This document shows, piece by piece, positions 492 through 8,740 of a stretch of DNA of 64,000 nucleotides. Numbering within the stretch: position 1 is the first letter of the stretch; each line of letters opens with the position of its first letter. Source of the DNA: Nitrosomonas sp. (GTDB lineage Bacteria; Pseudomonadota; Gammaproteobacteria; Burkholderiales; Nitrosomonadaceae); the NCBI RefSeq assembly GCF_024282095.1, contig NZ_JAMWZS010000008.1, positions 6,090-70,089 on the forward strand, read 5' to 3'. Both the position numbers and the translations under genes were made by a program. The notes under the pieces were generated by a model. That model saw only the letters and a list, made by a program, of their open reading frames with translations. It did no database searches and had not been told where the DNA came from.

Positions 492-2432
492 ATGAAAGTA
501 GCTGATATTAATCAGTTAAAAATTAGCACGTTGTTACCCAGTCCCAAAGGCGTGGCGCTTGCCTTATTGGAAGCCTGTCGGCGAGAAGACGTAACGATCA
601 ATGAGATCACTAAACTTGTCCAAACCGATCCTGCACTCTCGGGTCGTTTGATCCAGCGGGCCAATTCGACCAATCAGACTACGCGTGCTATCACTTCTGT
701 GACAGAAGCGATTTCTCGTGTCGGTTTACTGTCAGTTAAACAACTGGCAATGGGATTCTCACTGATCGATCAATATCAAAAAGGCTCTTGCAAGGAATTC
801 GATTACCAGGAATTCTGGTCACATTCGCTCCTCATGGCAATTGTGATGCAAGAATTAGGTAAGTCGACACGGATATCTGCATCGGATGAATTGTTCGCTT
901 GCGGTTTGATGGCGCGCATCGGTTGTTTAGCGTTAGCTACAATTTATCCGGATAAGTACAGTGAATTAATAGCGCAACAAACGCTCGATACACCGCTGAT
1001 CAGGCTGGAACAACAGCATCTGAAGACTGATCACAACGAATTGACCGCAGCAATGTTGATTAATTTTGGTGTTCCCAAGATTTTTGTTGAATCTGTCTAT
1101 TACCATGAAACGCCGGATGAGTCGGGCTTTTCTGAAGGGTCCCGCCCGTTTCAACTGGTACATTTATTTTATTTAGGAAAGCAGATTGCTGATTTTGGAT
1201 TGGCCGAGGAGTCAGAGCGTAACCAACGAATTTCCGAGTTGATGCTGCTGGGTGGAAAAATCGGTTTGGATGCCGAGTCATTTGGCGCATTGATAGATCA
1301 GGTTATGCAGGAATGGCAGTCGTGGGGGAAAATACTCAAGATATCCGCTGTAGAGCTTCTCCCGCCGTTTCATAAGATGATAAATGCGGCTGCGCCGCGT
1401 CAGGAAAATGACACAGATGTTGCTCCACTGCGGATCCTCGCAGTAGAAGATGATCCATCCAGCCTCATTCTTATCGAGGGATTGCTGGCGAGTACTCGTG
1501 GGCACACATTATTTACCGCAAGTAACGGCCAACAAGCCTTATCTTTAGCGATGGAAATCTCGCCGCATATTGTCATCACTGATTGGATTATGCCGGTGAT
1601 GAGCGGGCTGGAATTAACTAAATCTTTGCGTGCTACCGAATGGGGTCAGAATTTATATATTATTATGCTGACTGGCGTTGAAGACGAGGAAGAAGTCGTC
1701 AAGGCCTTTGATGCAGGCGTCGATGATTATGTGACAAAACCGATCAATTCACGTGCTTTCCGAGCCAGATTACGGGCAGCGTGGCATTATCGAAAGTTGC
1801 AAGAATCCTGGGAGCGTGACCGGGAGCAACTCAAGCGTTTTGCTGCAGAACTGGCCGTCACCAATCGTAAGCTGGAACATTTTGCATTAACCGATGTATT
1901 GACTGAATTGCCTAATCGGCGTGCAGGTATGGAAGCATTAACCGATGTATGGAGTGTTGCGAACCGATCGGGTCAACTGATGGCTGTCATGCTGATTGAT
2001 ATTGATCACTTCAAAAATATCAATGACACCTATGGGCATGCCATTGGCGACAAGGTGCTCAAAGAAGTAGCCATATCGATGAAAGACACTGCGCGAAAAG
2101 GCGATACTTTTTGTCGCATGGGGGGAGAAGAGTTTCTGATTGTTTGTCATAATGGAAATACCGATGCAAAATCTGTTGTTCTTTTTGCAGAGAGAATCCG
2201 CCAACATGTCAGTAAGCAACAAATTCATATTGATGAAGCTCACATTAATATTTCTGTCAGTATCGGCGTTGCCTTAAAAGAAGCGAGCATGAAGAACGAG
2301 GAGCATTTGGTCAATACTGCTGATAAGGCACTTTACGCCGCTAAGAATGCAGGGAGAAATAGAGTTTTTCTGGCACTCGGTGATCGGTTCATTAGCTGTA
2401 GCTCGGACAAACCACTCAATCATTTCGATTAA
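492..2432 (+). CDS. HDOD-REC-GGDEF diguanylate cyclase
   Basis: HDOD start (LPSP...DPALSGRLIQRANS), receiver domain (ILAVEDD...ITDWIMPVMSGLEL...DYVTKP), intact GGEEF with an upstream RxxD I-site (RKGD). Confidence 0.9.
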   Translation: MKVADINQLKISTLLPSPKGVALALLEACRREDVTINEITKLVQTDPALSGRLIQRANSTNQTTRAITSVTEAISRVGLLSVKQLAMGFSLIDQYQKGSCKEFDYQEFWSHSLLMAIVMQELGKSTRISASDELFACGLMARIGCLALATIYPDKYSELIAQQTLDTPLIRLEQQHLKTDHNELTAAMLINFGVPKIFVESVYYHETPDESGFSEGSRPFQLVHLFYLGKQIADFGLAEESERNQRISELMLLGGKIGLDAESFGALIDQVMQEWQSWGKILKISAVELLPPFHKMINAAAPRQENDTDVAPLRILAVEDDPSSLILIEGLLASTRGHTLFTASNGQQALSLAMEISPHIVITDWIMPVMSGLELTKSLRATEWGQNLYIIMLTGVEDEEEVVKAFDAGVDDYVTKPINSRAFRARLRAAWHYRKLQESWERDREQLKRFAAELAVTNRKLEHFALTDVLTELPNRRAGMEALTDVWSVANRSGQLMAVMLIDIDHFKNINDTYGHAIGDKVLKEVAISMKDTARKGDTFCRMGGEEFLIVCHNGNTDAKSVVLFAERIRQHVSKQQIHIDEAHINISVSIGVALKEASMKNEEHLVNTADKALYAAKNAGRNRVFLALGDRFISCSSDKPLNHFD

Positions 2433-2589
2433 ACAGCATCTGCCAATCAACTTCTCCTGCCCCTCTTGTCGATAGCGAGCCTTAACCCCGACTTCCGTAC
2501 CTCCGTAGTAATTCCATTCGGTTTAATGTGAGTTTCCGGATGCTTAAATTATGACATAATTAGCCGTCCTAACTATTTATGATCTAAAA

Positions 2590-3165
2590 GTGACCAAGCA
2601 AAATTCTTTTATTCATTATTCGATATTTTTTTTGGTTGGCATGTTTGGCCTATCAGCAATACACAACCCTGTTCGAGCCGATAATGGAATATGGATTGAT
2701 GTTGATACCATTGAACACACGTTATCGGTGATGCAGGGCAGTACTATTCAAGCAGTATTTAAGAATGTAGCTATCGGGCGCTATGGTACCACTTGGTCCA
2801 AGATGACAAAAGACGACAAAACCCCATTAGGTAGATTCAGAGTCGGCTGGGTCAACGAAAAAAGCCGCTATTATCGTTTTTTTGGCTTGAATTATCCAAA
2901 TCTCGATACAGCTAAACGTGCATTGGATGAAAACAGAATTTCTGAAGAAATTTGGTTATCAATTTTAGAAGCAAAGAACTTGGGAAAGACGCCACCTCAA
3001 AATACACCATTGGGTGGTCACATCGGAATACATGGAATTGGCAGGGGCGATCAAGAAATTCATCATAAATACAACTGGACAAATGGCTGTATTGCGCTCA
3101 CAAATGAGCAGATCGACCAGCTTGGTAAATGGATAAAACCCGGTATCTTAGTGAATATTCGCTAG
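2590..3165 (+). CDS. L,D-transpeptidase family protein (YkuD fold; YafK/COG3034-like)
   Basis: Signal peptide; DDKTPLGRF...LNYPN...GGHIGIHG...WTNGCIALTN with catalytic His and Cys. Confidence 0.8.
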   Translation: MTKQNSFIHYSIFFLVGMFGLSAIHNPVRADNGIWIDVDTIEHTLSVMQGSTIQAVFKNVAIGRYGTTWSKMTKDDKTPLGRFRVGWVNEKSRYYRFFGLNYPNLDTAKRALDENRISEEIWLSILEAKNLGKTPPQNTPLGGHIGIHGIGRGDQEIHHKYNWTNGCIALTNEQIDQLGKWIKPGILVNIR

Positions 3166-3443
3166 AAACCCGGGCAGTCAGCCTATTGATATCATTCGAT
3201 ATGTTGCTAAATACTTGAATTGGTCACTCGAATTAAATAATAATTTACGTCATATAGTTACAAGGTAATCCATGGTTTTGGGATGAGCGTTCTTGTAAAT
3301 TTGTCACAGAATCCATTTATTTTGCAGAAAAAATCAGATAAGATTCCAACGGGTTGCTGATATGTAGGTATCAGTAGCTAGTAAAGTGGCGGATGTTTAT
3401 GCGCATTAAAGCATTAAATAGAATAAACACTGAGGAGATCGGA

Positions 3444-3722
3444 ATGAAAGAAAAAATCAAGCATCCAGTTCGCGTTTTAACACTGGCAGCAATAGCAGGT
3501 GCTTTTATTGGATTAACAGGTTGTGCAACCACAGGTCAGTTAGAAGAATTACAGACTAAAGTTAATGCTGTTGCAGCTGACGCAGCAGCAGCTAAAGCAG
3601 AAGCAGCCGCTGCAAGCGCTAAAGCAAATGATGCAGTACGTATTGCTAATGAAGCAAACAATCGTTCAATGGAAACAGAATCAAAAATTGATCGGATGTT
3701 CAAAAAAGCAATGCATAAGTAA
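3444..3722 (+). CDS. Lpp/OprI-like alanine-zipper outer-membrane lipoprotein
   Basis: SD GAGGAG at 3432-3437 precedes ATG 3444; lipobox LTGC; Ala-rich coiled coil; C-terminal Lys (KAMHK*). Confidence 0.85.
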   Translation: MKEKIKHPVRVLTLAAIAGAFIGLTGCATTGQLEELQTKVNAVAADAAAAKAEAAAASAKANDAVRIANEANNRSMETESKIDRMFKKAMHK

Positions 3723-3747
3723 TCAGTTAGTATTCACAGTAAGAATC

Positions 3748-3777
3748 AAAAAAGCCCCTCATCTGAGGGGCTTTTTT
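3748..3777. terminator. Bidirectional Rho-independent terminator
   Basis: AAAAAA-GCCCCTC-ATCT-GAGGGGC-TTTTTT between the convergent lipoprotein and LDT genes. Confidence 0.85.
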
Positions 3778-3799
3778 ATGAATCACCTCGCTTCACTCT

Positions 3800-4786
3800 T
3801 TAATTATTTTGTGTATGGAATTGAATTTGATGGCGTGAACGTGAGATTAAAACCGGTATTCCATTTTTCTCGATGATTGCTTTTCTTAAAACTTCCTGAT
3901 CAATTTCAAAATCCTCAGTTATATTTTTCTTACTACTTTTTAATGCAAGAAAGTCATTGATAGCATTTATTGTCATTTGTTTGTAGTTAGCAAATTTCTC
4001 TTCATCTTCTTCCAATGGTGGGTGCAGTTCAATAAACAGTGAGTCCAGCAGCCAGCCGACTTTAATAGGCTGATTAACGACCTGCACTTGCGTTCCCAAT
4101 GGAATTTTATCAAATAATGCTTCGATATCTTCAGGGTACATGCGGACACACCCAGCTGAAACACGCATGCCAACACCGAACGGCTTGATTGTTCCATGTA
4201 TCAGATAACTACCGCCACCGATACTTAAGCGCATAGCATGCCGACCCAAGGGATTAGTTGGGCCCGGTGGCACCACACTGGGGTAAGGCTGCTCCCCATT
4301 AGCTATCCGATCCATTTGAAGTGATTTCGGCGGTGTCCAGGTTGGATCTTTCTTTTTATCAACGATCTTTGACACGCCCAGTGGGGTCACCCAATCCATT
4401 CGACCAATCCCCACCGGATGCGTAATAATCATAGGCTTCTCTCCTCTGACAGGTTCCGGGAAGTAGTAAATTCTCATTTCAGGTAGATTGAGTACCAAGC
4501 CTTTGCGATCAGCATGAGGGATAATATATCGACTTGGCAAAACAACTTTTGCACCATCTTCGGGTAACCATCGATCAACCGTCGGATTGGCCAGCAGAAT
4601 CTCAATCTGGCCAATATCGTATTGACGTGCTATATCCAGTAGCGTCTCCTCACGACTTGCATGAGTAGTTCGTATTTGGCCAAAAATATCGACATCATGT
4701 GGCGGAAGCACCCATGTTTCAGCACGAATAGCAGAAACAACAACAAAATTAATTGTGGCAAAAATAAGCAGGGAAAATCTATACAT
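3800..4786 (-). CDS. LysM-containing L,D-transpeptidase (ErfK/YbiS/YcfS/YnhG family)
   Basis: Signal peptide, LysM-like ETLLDIARQYDIG, NLPEMRIYY, HPVGIGR, catalytic LIHGT...SAGCVRM. Confidence 0.9.
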   Translation of the reverse strand: MYRFSLLIFATINFVVVSAIRAETWVLPPHDVDIFGQIRTTHASREETLLDIARQYDIGQIEILLANPTVDRWLPEDGAKVVLPSRYIIPHADRKGLVLNLPEMRIYYFPEPVRGEKPMIITHPVGIGRMDWVTPLGVSKIVDKKKDPTWTPPKSLQMDRIANGEQPYPSVVPPGPTNPLGRHAMRLSIGGGSYLIHGTIKPFGVGMRVSAGCVRMYPEDIEALFDKIPLGTQVQVVNQPIKVGWLLDSLFIELHPPLEEDEEKFANYKQMTINAINDFLALKSSKKNITEDFEIDQEVLRKAIIEKNGIPVLISRSRHQIQFHTQNN

Positions 4787-4920
4787 AAGTCATATCGTAC
4801 AGTATCAACGAAAGAAATAACTACGACAAATGGAATAATAACTGAAATCTTCTTGATAAAAGCAGAAAAACAAATGCAAATTTGAATAGTTAGCCAAGAA
4901 AGCCATCGTGACAACCTCTT

Positions 4921-5064
4921 TAGCAGACCGTTGAAAAACTATCTGCGTTGCCGCTACGGTGTAAAAACAGGCTCAACATGCTCATTTAGCATACATACAC
5001 TACGCTTTCTCACCTGTTTTTGTCTGGTATCGGTTGTCCGAAAGCGTTTTTCAACGGCCCGCTA
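4921..5064. mobile_element. ~140-bp palindromic MITE-like repeat, copy 1
   Basis: Imperfect 18-bp terminal inverted repeats TAGCAGACCGTTGAAAAA / TTTTTCAACGGCCCGCTA; internal stem AAAAACAGG (4963-4971) / CCTGTTTTT (5013-5021); homologous copy near 51600. Confidence 0.8.
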
Positions 5065-5065
5065 G

Positions 5066-5690
5066 ACATACCAGAAAGGGTTTCATCCCACGACGAAGCG
5101 GCTTTCCTTATAGTGCTCCAGCCTTTACGCCAAATTCATAGCGTCTATACACCTTACTCTTTCTTTCACTACCAAGGCATATATACACTGTAACACCGTA
5201 CGTTTATCATTGCGTTGTAGCGTGGATTCTTTTGGCAATCCCGGCAACCAATTGAACCGAGGATGGTTTAGAGGGTGTCGATCGATGGTTTACAGCTTGC
5301 AATGTCACGAATCATTCTTTCAACGTAGATTCGTACCACTGTTATTTGCGCCTAGCTCATTAAATCTGCCGCACGCGTAGTACACAGCTTGTATGTATTC
5401 ATCAGGAACACACACTTTGAGACCGTTCAATCTGCTTCGGCAAGGCAATTCTCAGTTATTTCGCTTGCTTCACCAGCGTTTTTATCGCTAGTAAAAACCT
5501 CTTCTCAGCAAACTACCACAACTTCATTCGATTCGTTGGATTACTGGCTTCAGATAGCGCTCCACCATCAACCGGATCGGTATACCGGGGTGCCTTTTCT
5601 AACAACCCATCAATTTGCTGCTCTGCTAAAAGACAAGTTCGTCTTTTCAACGAAACGGATAGGATGTCTATTAACTCAGCATTTGCCTCG
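5066..5690 (-). pseudogene. Highly degraded IS5-family transposase remnant (boundaries approximate)
   Basis: Minus-strand fragments in different frames (LVKQAK*LRIAL, ERMIRDIAS, RRYEFGVKAG, ESRFVVG*NPF) recall IS5-type transposase motifs such as KPYEFGVK and GRxIRDI; many stops and frameshifts. Confidence 0.55.
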
Positions 5691-6428: not shown

Positions 6429-7526
6429 TTAATTCTTACTCATGATATAACCGCTAACATACCATTGATAAAGGATTTTTTTAGTCTCATTCCCAGTTTC
6501 TGAAGATGGCAGAAATTCCTGATTGTCAGCAAGTTTAATGAGTTCTTTGTATGTATTAATACTTACTTTATAGACTTCACCATTGATGAAAATTTTGTTA
6601 TTACCGCTTAACATTCTACTTTTTAAGTTAAGCTGCACACCATTTTCTTTAATCTGCTGCTGAAATATAGTGGGTGCCAAAGGCTTCGCAGGTTGTTCAA
6701 AAAAAACATGCGTTTTAGGTTCTGAAAGATAAATACCCAGAAAATCTTCGATATCACTGCGGTTCCATTTAATTTTCTTCAATATCGAATTCACCTGAGA
6801 CTGCATTGCTGCATTGATTTTTGACGGATGGGGTTGCAATTGCAAGTCAGGATCGGAATACCTGCCTTCCACCGCAACATTATCTTGCAGATAATCCAGA
6901 AATTGCGTTATCAACTCATGATGACTCGGTGCGCGAAAACCAATGGAATAGGTCATACAGTCACCTTCCGCAATACCGTTATGCGCATAATGAGGCGGCA
7001 GATACAGCATATCACCAGCTTCCAGCACCCATTCCTGTTCGGGTTGAAAATTCCTCAAAATCTTCAGTGGCGCATCAGCAATGAATTGATCGTCCTGTTG
7101 TGCGGATATCTGCCAGCGCCTGGATCCCATTCCTTGTAATAAAAACACATCATAGGAATCAAAATGCGGCCCGACTCCACCGCCTTTAGGCGCATAGCTC
7201 ACCATTAAATCATCCAGGCGAGCATGGGGTATAAAACGAAATTTTGATAATAAATCACGCGCAGATGGAAGAAAATGGTTCACATCCTGTACGAGCAGCG
7301 TCCATTGCTTTTTAGGCAATTTTGACAAATCATTATTACTGAACGGGCCATGCCTGAGATGCCATTTACCATTTTTCTGAACGACAAGGCGGGATTGTGC
7401 ATCTTCATCACATGCCAGCTTCATTAATTCATCGGGTGTTAACAAACCATCGAAACCGGGCAGAGCATTTCTTATCAACAAAGGCTGCTTTTGCCAATAA
7501 TCACGTAAAAAATCTTTGGGCGTCAT
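6429..7526 (-). CDS. roxA: JmjC/cupin 2-oxoglutarate oxygenase, RoxA/YcfD-like (ribosomal protein uL16 hydroxylase family); start uncertain (7526 or 7622)
   Basis: FLRDYWQKQPLLIR, DDLMVSYA..GGGVGPHFDSYDVFLLQG (HxD) and YLPPHYAH (distal His). The ORF-track start at 7670 overlaps msrA by more than 100 nt. Confidence 0.8.
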   Translation of the reverse strand: MTPKDFLRDYWQKQPLLIRNALPGFDGLLTPDELMKLACDEDAQSRLVVQKNGKWHLRHGPFSNNDLSKLPKKQWTLLVQDVNHFLPSARDLLSKFRFIPHARLDDLMVSYAPKGGGVGPHFDSYDVFLLQGMGSRRWQISAQQDDQFIADAPLKILRNFQPEQEWVLEAGDMLYLPPHYAHNGIAEGDCMTYSIGFRAPSHHELITQFLDYLQDNVAVEGRYSDPDLQLQPHPSKINAAMQSQVNSILKKIKWNRSDIEDFLGIYLSEPKTHVFFEQPAKPLAPTIFQQQIKENGVQLNLKSRMLSGNNKIFINGEVYKVSINTYKELIKLADNQEFLPSSETGNETKKILYQWYVSGYIMSKN

Positions 7527-7554
7527 TCCCGCCAAAGCGATAGCCTGTATTTTA

Positions 7555-8208
7555 TTAATGCTCAGTCCCCCACAATTCTTCCAGGCGTTTATCACGTCCA
7601 CAGTTTTTTCGGTAATATCCATATCGAAGTGGATTCTTGATGTAATAATCCTGATGATATTCTTCTGCACGGTAAAATTCGGAGGCGGATAGAATCTCCG
7701 TCACAATAGGCTGAGTAAATCGACCGGATGCTTTCAGCGCCTTTTTTGAAGCCTCTGCCAATTCTTTTTGGTCAGGATTAAGGTAAAAAATCGCACTGCG
7801 ATATTGTGAGCCAATATCACAAAACTGTTGGTTAGGTGTCAGCGGATCAATCGTTAACCAATAAGCTGCCAATAATTTAGAGAAACTGGTTTTTGACTTA
7901 TCAAAATGAACTTGCACAGCTTCCACATGCCCCGTTCTGCCAGCAGATACTTGTTTATACGTTGGATTTATCACTGTACCGCCAATATAACCCGATGTGG
8001 TCGAAACGACTCCGGGTATTTTGTCAAAATCAGATTCAGTGCACCAAAAACAACCGCCGGCAAAAATTGCCACCTCTAGATTCTCGCTTGGTACCTGTGC
8101 AGTTGCTGATTCTGCGATGGGTGTATCCATTTGCTGGCAAGCACTCAATACTAATATGGACAGCAATAAGACAATCATAAAATGCCGTCGACAAAGCCAC
8201 GTCCACAT
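7555..8208 (-). CDS. msrA: Peptide-methionine (S)-S-oxide reductase MsrA with lipoprotein signal
   Basis: GGCFWC active site, AEEYHQDYY; lipobox VLSAC; ATG 8208 follows GGTGAG and the msrB stop. Confidence 0.9.
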   Translation of the reverse strand: MWTWLCRRHFMIVLLLSILVLSACQQMDTPIAESATAQVPSENLEVAIFAGGCFWCTESDFDKIPGVVSTTSGYIGGTVINPTYKQVSAGRTGHVEAVQVHFDKSKTSFSKLLAAYWLTIDPLTPNQQFCDIGSQYRSAIFYLNPDQKELAEASKKALKASGRFTQPIVTEILSASEFYRAEEYHQDYYIKNPLRYGYYRKNCGRDKRLEELWGTEH

Positions 8209-8212
8209 ATAC

Positions 8213-8740
8213 TCACCCCCTCGGTGCCGGCAGTTGATCGGTTTCCAGTACAAACTTTAGCGCCAGTCCGTTATTACACCAGCGCTCACCTCGCGGTGGC
8301 GGTCCATCTTTGAAGACATGCCCCTGATGCCCTCCGCATCGTATACAGTGATATTCAGTGCGCAGAAAAATCAGCTTAAAGTCGCGTCTTGTCCCCATAT
8401 GCCCAGGAATGGGCTGTGTAAAGCTCGGCCATCCAGTCCCGCTCTCATACTTATATTGACTTTCAAACAGCGGCAAATAGCATGCGGCACAGATAAAGGT
8501 CCCTGCTCGATGCTCATGATTTAATTCGCTGCTTCCAGGTTCCTCGGTATGCTCTTCAAATAAAACCCGGTAGGCTTCCGGCGACACCAATCCACGCCAT
8601 GCTTCATGGGGTTTGTTGAGTGGCTCGATTGCAGTTTGCGGATTAATATCACCCGCGACCAATTGTGCCGGTAACAAAAATGAAAGCGCGGGTAAAGCAG
8701 TAACTACACTCATTCCTTGAAGAAAGATGCGTCGTTTCAT
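8213..8740 (-). CDS. msrB: Peptide-methionine (R)-S-oxide reductase MsrB with Tat signal
   Basis: MKRRIFLQ twin-arginine motif; CAAC and CIRC Zn ligands; GWPSF, HQGHVF, RWCNNG. Confidence 0.9.
   Translation of the reverse strand: MKRRIFLQGMSVVTALPALSFLLPAQLVAGDINPQTAIEPLNKPHEAWRGLVSPEAYRVLFEEHTEEPGSSELNHEHRAGTFICAACYLPLFESQYKYESGTGWPSFTQPIPGHMGTRRDFKLIFLRTEYHCIRCGGHQGHVFKDGPPPRGERWCNNGLALKFVLETDQLPAPRG

Follow-up and report, generated by a model that had tools for sequence, protein, structure and literature searches.

Does a single Nitrosomonas locus hold all the parts needed to fasten the outer membrane to peptidoglycan and to release it again? The question arises at positions 2590-4786 of a 64,000-nucleotide stretch of DNA from Nitrosomonas sp. 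(hereafter the window, meaning the whole stretch), where an earlier note, made from the letters of the sequence, had placed three adjacent open reading frames (ORFs). The three frames were confirmed: p1 (2590-3165, + strand, 191 aa), encoding a secreted protein of the YkuD fold and hydrolase type, the candidate peptidoglycan-lipoprotein amidase or eraser; lpp (3444-3722, + strand, 92 aa), encoding an Lpp/OprI-type alanine-zipper lipoprotein, the candidate tether and substrate; and the convergent ldt (3800-4786, - strand, 328 aa), encoding an L,D-transpeptidase (Ldt) of the LdtA-E or LdtPae2 type, the candidate writer. In the best reading, the locus is the form that the known Lpp/OprI tether system takes in Nitrosomonas, with all parts together, and we give the whole writer/substrate/eraser explanation, as read from sequence, a probability of roughly 0.55. 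The gene identities, motifs, fold, synteny and co-occurrence are established here. What appears to be new is the candidate detaching enzyme, a member of a clade that is sister to DpaA and LdtPae3 and so far uncharacterised.

An alanine-zipper lipoprotein that ends in lysine

The listed ORF of the lipoprotein spans 3393-3722 on the + strand. The ATG at 3444 is most likely the real start because a GAGGAG box lies directly ahead of it (3432-3437, 7 nt ahead of the ATG), and translation from there yields 92 aa. This protein carries an LTGC lipobox with Cys26 as its lipidation residue, has Ala27 at +2 and no inner-membrane retention residue, and matures to 67 Ala-rich residues with the tail KIDRMFKKAMHK, whose last residues are KAMHK with Lys92 at the terminus. 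It passed the NCBIfam Lpp/OprI model Ala_zip_lipo NF040598 (68.7 bits, cut-off 43) and Pfam Alanine_zipper PF11839 (51.8 bits, cut-off 23.1); Pfam LPP (PF04728) gave no match at E ≤ 0.01, and identity with E. coli Lpp was 27% over 63 residues. Membership of the OprI/Lpp alanine-zipper family is supported by these profiles, as the earlier note had supposed, and the gene is the single copy of its kind in the host genome.

Lipoproteins encoded 3′ of p1 were recovered from 65 loci and their tails compared. The most conserved stretch was the last 12 residues, K(I/L)DRMFKK(A/S)M(H/M/Y)K, and the terminal residue was Lys in 63 of the 65, so the terminal lysine that had been noticed in the window holds among its syntenic homologues. 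At a locus from a Nitrosomonas metagenome-assembled genome (L046) the frame extends beyond KKAM(H)K to 128 aa and the terminal Lys is gone, which may be a sequencing error or a genuine variant. Another homologue (L105) terminates in ...KTMQKSG.

The three genes stay together across orders

The close homologues of p1 are Nitrosomonas proteins. Among 29 loci from other Nitrosomonas genomes, for which short flanks were available, the lipoprotein gene followed p1 in 23 and a convergent Ldt was seen within those flanks in 17. One further arrangement, in Nitrosomonas genome G015 (locus L040), keeps the trio together on a single strand as p1, ldt and lpp, in that sequence. With a 16-sequence p1 alignment we found 80 named loci, one genome per species. 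Beyond Nitrosomonas, the order p1 and lpp facing a convergent ldt was present in Methylomonas, Methylomicrobium, other Methylococcaceae and Methylothermaceae, and also in Ectothiorhodospiraceae, Chromatiales, Thiogranum and Halioglobus, with p1 identities of 43-57% across these cluster-bearing families. The trio arrangement is far beyond chance and is conserved across orders.

Such a cluster could also reflect common regulation of envelope genes or an old gene order around a lipoprotein that is not covalently bound, and six OmpA-domain proteins encoded in the host genome could tether the outer membrane non-covalently. We regard this as very unlikely. No part of the lipoprotein is better conserved than the terminal Lys with its 12-residue tail, the cluster persists across families at the p1 identities given above and has once been rearranged, and the homologous OprI is bound to peptidoglycan through its terminal Lys (PMC10434034). 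From its sequence, the lipoprotein is very probably bound to peptidoglycan by an LdtA-E-type enzyme.

p1 tracks the lipoprotein gene

Co-occurrence was scored in 400 genomes drawn evenly from the class Gammaproteobacteria, each 90% complete or better. The p1 profile had matches in 80 of the 400 and the lipoprotein model in 111; counted by genus across the class, p1 was present in 56 of 309 and the lipoprotein in 83 of 309. The lipoprotein was found in 76 of the 80 genomes with p1 compared with 35 of the 320 without it (odds ratio 155, Fisher p 6e-49, shared ancestry ignored). The four p1 genomes that lacked the lipoprotein comprised a pseudogene, a fragment at a contig end, a false positive (SxGCIR motif) and a p1 on contig C62, where the lipoprotein model had no match.

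p1 and lpp lay within 3 kb of each other in 42 genomes, in all of which p1 scored at least 200 bits, and in 39 of these (39 of the 400 genomes) lpp was directly downstream of p1 on the same strand. In a p1 subclade of greater distance the gene is unlinked to lpp yet still co-occurs with the lipoprotein, which argues that p1 depends functionally on the lipoprotein, beyond inherited gene order. An LdtA-E-type gene was present in all 75 of the genomes with p1 and the lipoprotein that were checked; it was located 2.5 kb or less from lpp in 63 and was convergent in 59, and 55 of the 75 had a single gene of this type. The DpaA model matched 7 of the 80 p1 genomes and 34 of the 320 others, and it matched 10 of the 35 genomes that have the lipoprotein without p1.

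Two p1 homologues carry an in-frame stop codon (G113:C1:278197-278727 and G194:C4:50115-50690). Genome G113 is also without the lipoprotein gene, a state that would fit decay of p1 following loss of its substrate. Within the window's own order the alanine-zipper lipoprotein occurred in just 8 of 99 genera, and p1 was found in 2 of the 25 genera sampled among relatives. Nitrosomonas may have acquired the module by transfer, or its relatives may have widely lost it.

p1 as a candidate hydrolytic YkuD enzyme

The start codon of p1 is GTG, and its Sec-type signal peptide (MTKQNSFIHYSIFFLVGMFGLSAIHNPVRA, followed by DNG) has the cleavage site VRA-DNG. The remainder is one YkuD domain (Pfam, 73.1 bits), with which the protein ends at residue 191, and DpaA's C-terminal tail is absent. 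The predicted catalytic residues are His148 and Cys167, the latter within the motif W163-T-N-G-C-I-A169. Alignment of 67 family members identified H148, W163, T164, G166, C167 and A169 as the invariant positions, and the motif TxGC(I/V)A, with Ala replacing the Arg of transpeptidases, was present in 66 of the 67. It has been proposed that SxGChA instead of SxGChR is a hydrolase signature (PMC10434034), and DpaA was reported to have no Arg at the catalytic site and one entrance only (PMC12729407).

The AlphaFold2 model of p1 (predicted local distance difference test score 92.4) has a short L2 hairpin, two helices in L3 and no lid loop. A short L2 with a helical L3 has been reported for DpaA and carboxypeptidases, not for transpeptidases (PMC10653827). 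Active-site geometry was judged from alignments only. In these, S-R-Y-Y at 92-95 of p1 corresponds to S107-R108-Y109 of DpaA, where Arg108 and Tyr109 are cleft residues (PMC10653827). Positions 70 and 71 of p1 fall near the site of DpaA Lys83, which binds the D-centre carboxylate of meso-diaminopimelate (mDAP); Lys occupies position 70 in 32 of the 67 family members and Arg or Lys position 71 in 42 of them, with the loop alignment off by one residue. Relative to LdtPae3-like proteins, p1 has a two-helix insert of about 30 residues (A..AL..G.I....PPQ.T.LGG). A single-sequence search of the PDB sequences with p1 gave no match, and a search with the family profile returned Bd1075, Pgp2 and DpaA as the best matches (2.8e-8 to 5.4e-7). 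The best PDB matches of p1, by sequence and by fold, are all hydrolytic YkuD enzymes.

Could p1 itself be the writer, a transpeptidase specialised in attaching the lipoprotein or in exchanging its last residue? The intact His/Cys pair of the YkuD family in its canonical spacing would allow it. p1 also depends strictly on the lipoprotein gene and sits directly upstream of it, as would suit such a role. We give this the least weight of the alternatives, and very little, as Ala stands in place of the catalytic-site Arg in nearly the whole family, the lid loop for a two-entrance groove is missing and LdtPae3, with the same motif, made no anchors in E. coli. Moreover, the lipoprotein is found without p1 in 35 genomes, and an LdtA-E-type enzyme always accompanies p1; p1 is thus accessory.

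A tree of 69 sequences, with supports from the Shimodaira-Hasegawa-like approximate likelihood ratio test (SH-aLRT), split LdtA-E (99) from a hydrolase-type group that contains p1. This group comprised three clades, DpaA-like (97), LdtPae3-like (95) and a p1 core (96), and the tree gives no firm order among them, nor for Pgp2. Judged by sequence, p1 belongs to the hydrolytic YkuD branch as a clade of its own beside the DpaA-like and LdtPae3-like ones. The earlier note had called p1 YafK-like and had suggested a phylogeny of both YkuD proteins as a check. The name YafK-like holds loosely. p1 has the SxGChA motif of the hydrolytic branch, and orthology with DpaA (YafK) was rejected: p1 falls outside the DpaA-like clade, is 22% identical to DpaA (E 1e-4 as a single comparison, 27 bits) and was not matched at E ≤ 0.01 by the DpaA model NF040599, which scores E. 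coli DpaA at 428 bits. Its His-Cys spacing is 19 (H148-C167) compared with 8 in DpaA (H135-C143) and in Legionella Lpg1514 (H166-C174). The host genome (2.8 Mb, 99.97% complete) has five YkuD genes, two in the window and three elsewhere. A DpaA orthologue is not among them, which leaves p1 as the sole DpaA-like candidate in the host.

LdtPae3 of P. aeruginosa, whose catalytic block is shown in a published supplement as ...IMIHGTPLDDEYPEWYFSTLDW-TNGCIAMNN... (PMC10434034), resembles p1 in its long His-Cys loop and its DW-TNGCIA motif. We considered placing LdtPae3 in the p1 family and rejected this, as the fragment best matched a separate clade of ~170-aa proteins (50% identity), with p1 loci at 30-44%. 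One LdtPae3-like ORF was 30% identical to p1 (61 bits) and 30% identical to DpaA (53 bits). Produced in E. coli, LdtPae3 formed neither cross-links nor lipoprotein anchors, and a tentative role in OprI release was proposed for it (PMC10434034).

Several points weigh against p1 as an eraser. Besides its distance from DpaA, the association with the lipoprotein was computed without regard to ancestry, p1 and DpaA show no clear pattern of replacing each other among genomes, and the releasing activity of LdtPae3 is itself tentative. Pgp2 likewise has TRGCIA, and the TxGCIA motif therefore marks hydrolases generally, not amidases. In a Foldseek search with the p1 model the top places went to Pgp2, Bd1075 and Csd6 (TMq 0.53-0.56, E 6e-8 to 4e-7), while DpaA came ninth (TMq 0.50), and the profile matches to Bd1075 and Pgp2 were also slightly above that to DpaA. 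These results count in favor of an L,D-carboxypeptidase that would trim tetrapeptide to tripeptide stems, leave fewer donors for the Ldt and so limit tethering indirectly, as do the long His-Cys spacing, which carboxypeptidases share, and the fact that the amidase and carboxypeptidase reactions differ just in the leaving group. However, p1 is without the NTF2-like C-terminal domain of Csd6, Pgp2 and Bd1075. In addition, its invariant Gly146 aligns with the carboxypeptidase-specific Trp (the Trp of GIWIHG in Pgp2; Trp158 of Csd6, in the D-Ala pocket), a position that is non-aromatic in DpaA too. A general stem trimmer would not be expected to track the lipoprotein gene (76/80 against 35/320) or to stand directly upstream of lpp, as p1 does in 39 of 400 genomes. 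We consider a carboxypeptidase unlikely, and from its motif, fold and genomic company p1 has a little better than an even chance of being a peptidoglycan-lipoprotein amidase. More tentative, and slightly short of an even chance in our judgement, is the wider proposal that the p1 clade would be a third, unrecognised lineage of such amidases and the trio a conserved three-gene tether-remodelling module.

One p1 homologue (P0129) has an N-terminal extension with a lipobox of its own (LTTGC) and, after it, a stretch resembling a coiled coil, features that suggest a form of p1 anchored in a membrane. N-terminal extensions are found in other ORFs of the family as well (L183 and L182 among them), with lengths of up to 313-389 aa.

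The convergent L,D-transpeptidase as candidate writer

The Ldt has a signal peptide, a degenerate LysM-like N-terminal domain, a YkuD domain (IHGT...SAGCVRM; Pfam, 73.3 bits) and an Ldt_C domain that scores slightly below its cut-off (24.8 against 26.8 bits). By its H...SxGChR motif, its domains and its full-length likeness to characterised members it belongs to the LdtA-E type. It had been described beforehand as a convergent LysM-ErfK-type enzyme; the ErfK part of that name is upheld, and the LysM part is weaker, Pfam LysM (PF01476) reaching 12.1 bits on the N-terminal region, below its cut-off of 20.9. Identity with E. coli LdtA, B, C and E is 34-37% over about 310 residues (LdtE, 37%). The best NCBIfam models were LdtE (222.6 bits, cut-off 480), LdtB (198.5, cut-off 583) and LdtA (183.2, cut-off 517); equivalence to any of these three was rejected, all scores being below the cut-offs and the protein branching outside E. 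coli LdtA-E.

Its best solved relative is PDB 9tyw (233.7 bits, E 2.5e-68), a closer match than to any E. coli Ldt (176-197 bits). Over a 46-residue stretch given in the PMC10434034 supplement, the sequences of 9tyw and LdtPae2 are identical. LdtPae2 is the only OprI-anchoring enzyme of P. aeruginosa, as determined by deletion and by expression in E. coli (PMC10434034).

Outside the window, the host encodes a 403-aa LdtA-E-type paralogue on another contig, bearing a lipoprotein signal as well as a true LysM domain (31.5 bits), a cytoplasmic ElsL-like carboxypeptidase, and a YcbB/LdtD-type enzyme on contig C77 (L002 562-2846) whose gene is directly followed by one for a MepK-like (DUF882) peptidase. 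YcbB/LdtD and MepK are the usual couple for making and cutting 3-3 cross-links, the same as ldtD-mepK in E. coli.

The 403-aa paralogue raises the possibility that it attaches the lipoprotein and that the convergent Ldt is a 3-3 cross-linker like LdtE, with the role of p1 unchanged. E. coli K-12 too has a convergent lpp/ldtE pair, 63 nt apart, and E. coli LdtE, whose NCBIfam model is the best match of the window's Ldt, produces 3-3 cross-links. This neighbour of lpp is a cross-linker, not the Lpp anchor, and adjacency alone therefore cannot assign the writer role; this pair and the second paralogue both count against the neighbouring Ldt as writer. Anchoring and cross-linking Ldts do not separate by lineage (PMC10434034), and both Nitrosomonas LdtA-E-type enzymes branched outside the E. 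coli LdtA-E radiation in our tree, so orthology cannot settle the activity of the Ldt. Its assignment to one activity or the other by phylogeny was tried and dropped, as the division seen in E. coli falls inside the group that the E. coli enzymes form by themselves. Against a cross-linker, 55 of 75 genomes have one LdtA-E-type gene only, usually beside lpp, the Ldt is closer to the LdtPae2-type structure than to the E. coli Ldts, and a YcbB-type cross-linker is encoded elsewhere in the genome. We find a cross-linking role unlikely, though less so than a carboxypeptidase for p1. The best argument for the writer is that most lipoprotein genomes have a single LdtA-E-type enzyme, beside lpp. On sequence evidence the neighbouring Ldt probably attaches the lipoprotein. 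The earlier note's division of labor, in which one gene attaches and the other detaches the lipoprotein, thus gains support from comparison among genomes, whereas adjacency as proof of the writer does not survive the E. coli lpp/ldtE pair.

Proposed mechanism and significance

We infer both enzyme activities and the peptidoglycan attachment of the lipoprotein, and the cycle would run as follows. The lipoprotein, an alanine-zipper coiled coil with a 67-residue mature form, would sit with its N-terminal lipid in the outer membrane. The Ldt would use a tetrapeptide stem as donor, release D-Ala4, form a Cys-acyl enzyme on the L-centre of mDAP3 and then transfer the stem onto the epsilon-amino group of lipoprotein Lys92. 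p1, as a periplasmic hydrolytic YkuD enzyme, would attack the same mDAP-Lys amide with Cys167, and water would resolve the acyl enzyme, leaving the lipoprotein free. This would allow the bound and free pools of the lipoprotein to be adjusted in the manner of the E. coli Lpp/LdtA-C/DpaA and P. aeruginosa OprI/LdtPae2/LdtPae3 systems.

According to an often cited survey that used Pfam LPP alone (10.1101/2021.05.31.446380), covalent Lpp tethering does not reach beyond four orders of Gammaproteobacteria. It is probably much commoner than that, since OprI-type lipoproteins occur in 111 of our 400 sampled genomes. If our explanation is right, reversible covalent tethering of the outer membrane would extend far wider than the four-order picture; among gammaproteobacterial genomes, about one in ten would hold the module and about one in five the p1-lipoprotein pair, nitrifiers and methanotrophs included. 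Envelope mechanics matter for these organisms, whose envelope biology is little studied, and the three-gene cluster supplies a candidate detaching enzyme for all these lineages. The function of p1 would also tell if hydrolysis is the general activity of YkuD enzymes in the TxGCIA branch. LpxC (PF03331) gave no match in the whole host genome. In this Nitrosomonas the tether would then work in an outer membrane apparently without lipid A, and a covalent tether in an outer membrane free of lipopolysaccharide would merit study. A literature search returned no paper on this cluster or on a peptidoglycan-bound lipoprotein of Nitrosomonas, and the module does not appear in the reviews and surveys consulted.

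Transcription signals and neighboring genes

The stop codons of lpp and ldt are 77 nt apart, and between them lies a hairpin terminator for both strands (3747-3778; A6-GCCCCTCA-loop-TGAGGGGC-T6). The terminator scan gave it 14 pairs, 6 of them G-C, with A6 and T6 on its flanks, and the shared bidirectional terminator that had been proposed between the convergent genes is in place. Scanned against Rfam, 2400-5100 yielded no RNA family and only sub-threshold terminator-like matches on both strands. Two overlapping sigma-70-like promoter matches (3186-3244, + strand; 9/12 each in a consensus scan) fall inside the 279-nt spacer upstream of lpp. Promoter-like sites in this region were no more numerous than in shuffled sequences by the same scan, and the matches are weak evidence for a possible promoter of lpp's own.

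Upstream of p1, window positions 492-2432 (+ strand) encode an HDOD-receiver-GGDEF diguanylate cyclase. Homologues of GGDEF response regulators were located just past ldt in three distant cluster-bearing loci (L070, L084 and L122), and OprI anchoring in P. aeruginosa increases in biofilms (PMC10434034). A connection of the cluster to cyclic di-GMP is possible. Downstream of the cluster are a gene for a JmjC/RoxA-like hydroxylase (6429-7670, - strand) and MsrA/MsrB-like ORFs (7555-8740, - strand), the Msr names coming from reading the sequence, not from a profile search; the hydroxylase and Msr-like genes appear unrelated to the tether trio.

Comparison with known systems

The OprI/LdtPae2/LdtPae3 system of P. 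aeruginosa resembles the Nitrosomonas locus in all three parts. OprI belongs to the same lipoprotein family, an alanine zipper with a terminal Lys (PMC10434034), and its tail is ...KASRK where the Nitrosomonas lipoprotein has KIDRMFKKAMHK. The sequence of LdtPae2 is the one carried by the best solved relative of the window's Ldt, and LdtPae3 has in common with p1 the long His-Cys loop and the motif (D/N)-W-T-x-G-C-I-A. However, LdtPae3-like proteins form a clade separate from p1 (SH-aLRT 95-96), at about 30% identity. We take ldtPae2 to lie beside oprI and ldtPae3 to lie far off. The locus tags are PA14_27180 for ldtPae2 and PA14_15840 for ldtPae3 (PMC10434034).

The Lpp/LdtA-C/DpaA system of E. 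coli follows the same logic, in that YkuD enzymes link the terminal Lys to mDAP and an SxGChA paralogue hydrolyses the bond. Both genomes have a convergent lpp/ldt pair, and the S-R-Y-Y patch is common to DpaA and p1. The differences are that the Nitrosomonas lipoprotein matches Alanine_zipper and not Pfam LPP; that DpaA has a C-terminal tail and a His-Cys spacing of 8, whereas p1 has no tail, a spacing of 19, 22% identity to DpaA and a failed match to NF040599; that dpaA is unlinked to lpp, whereas p1 adjoins it; and that the neighbor of lpp in E. coli, LdtE, is a cross-linker.

The best fold matches to p1 are Csd6 of H. pylori, Pgp2 of C. jejuni and Bd1075 of B. bacteriovorus. They share with p1 the TxGCIA motif, a basic residue ahead of GD.KTP.G and a helical L3, and they differ in having an NTF2-like C-terminal domain and the D-Ala-pocket Trp, where p1 has Gly. 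Unlike these L,D-carboxypeptidases, which are tied to cell-shape genes, p1 is genomically tied to the lipoprotein gene.

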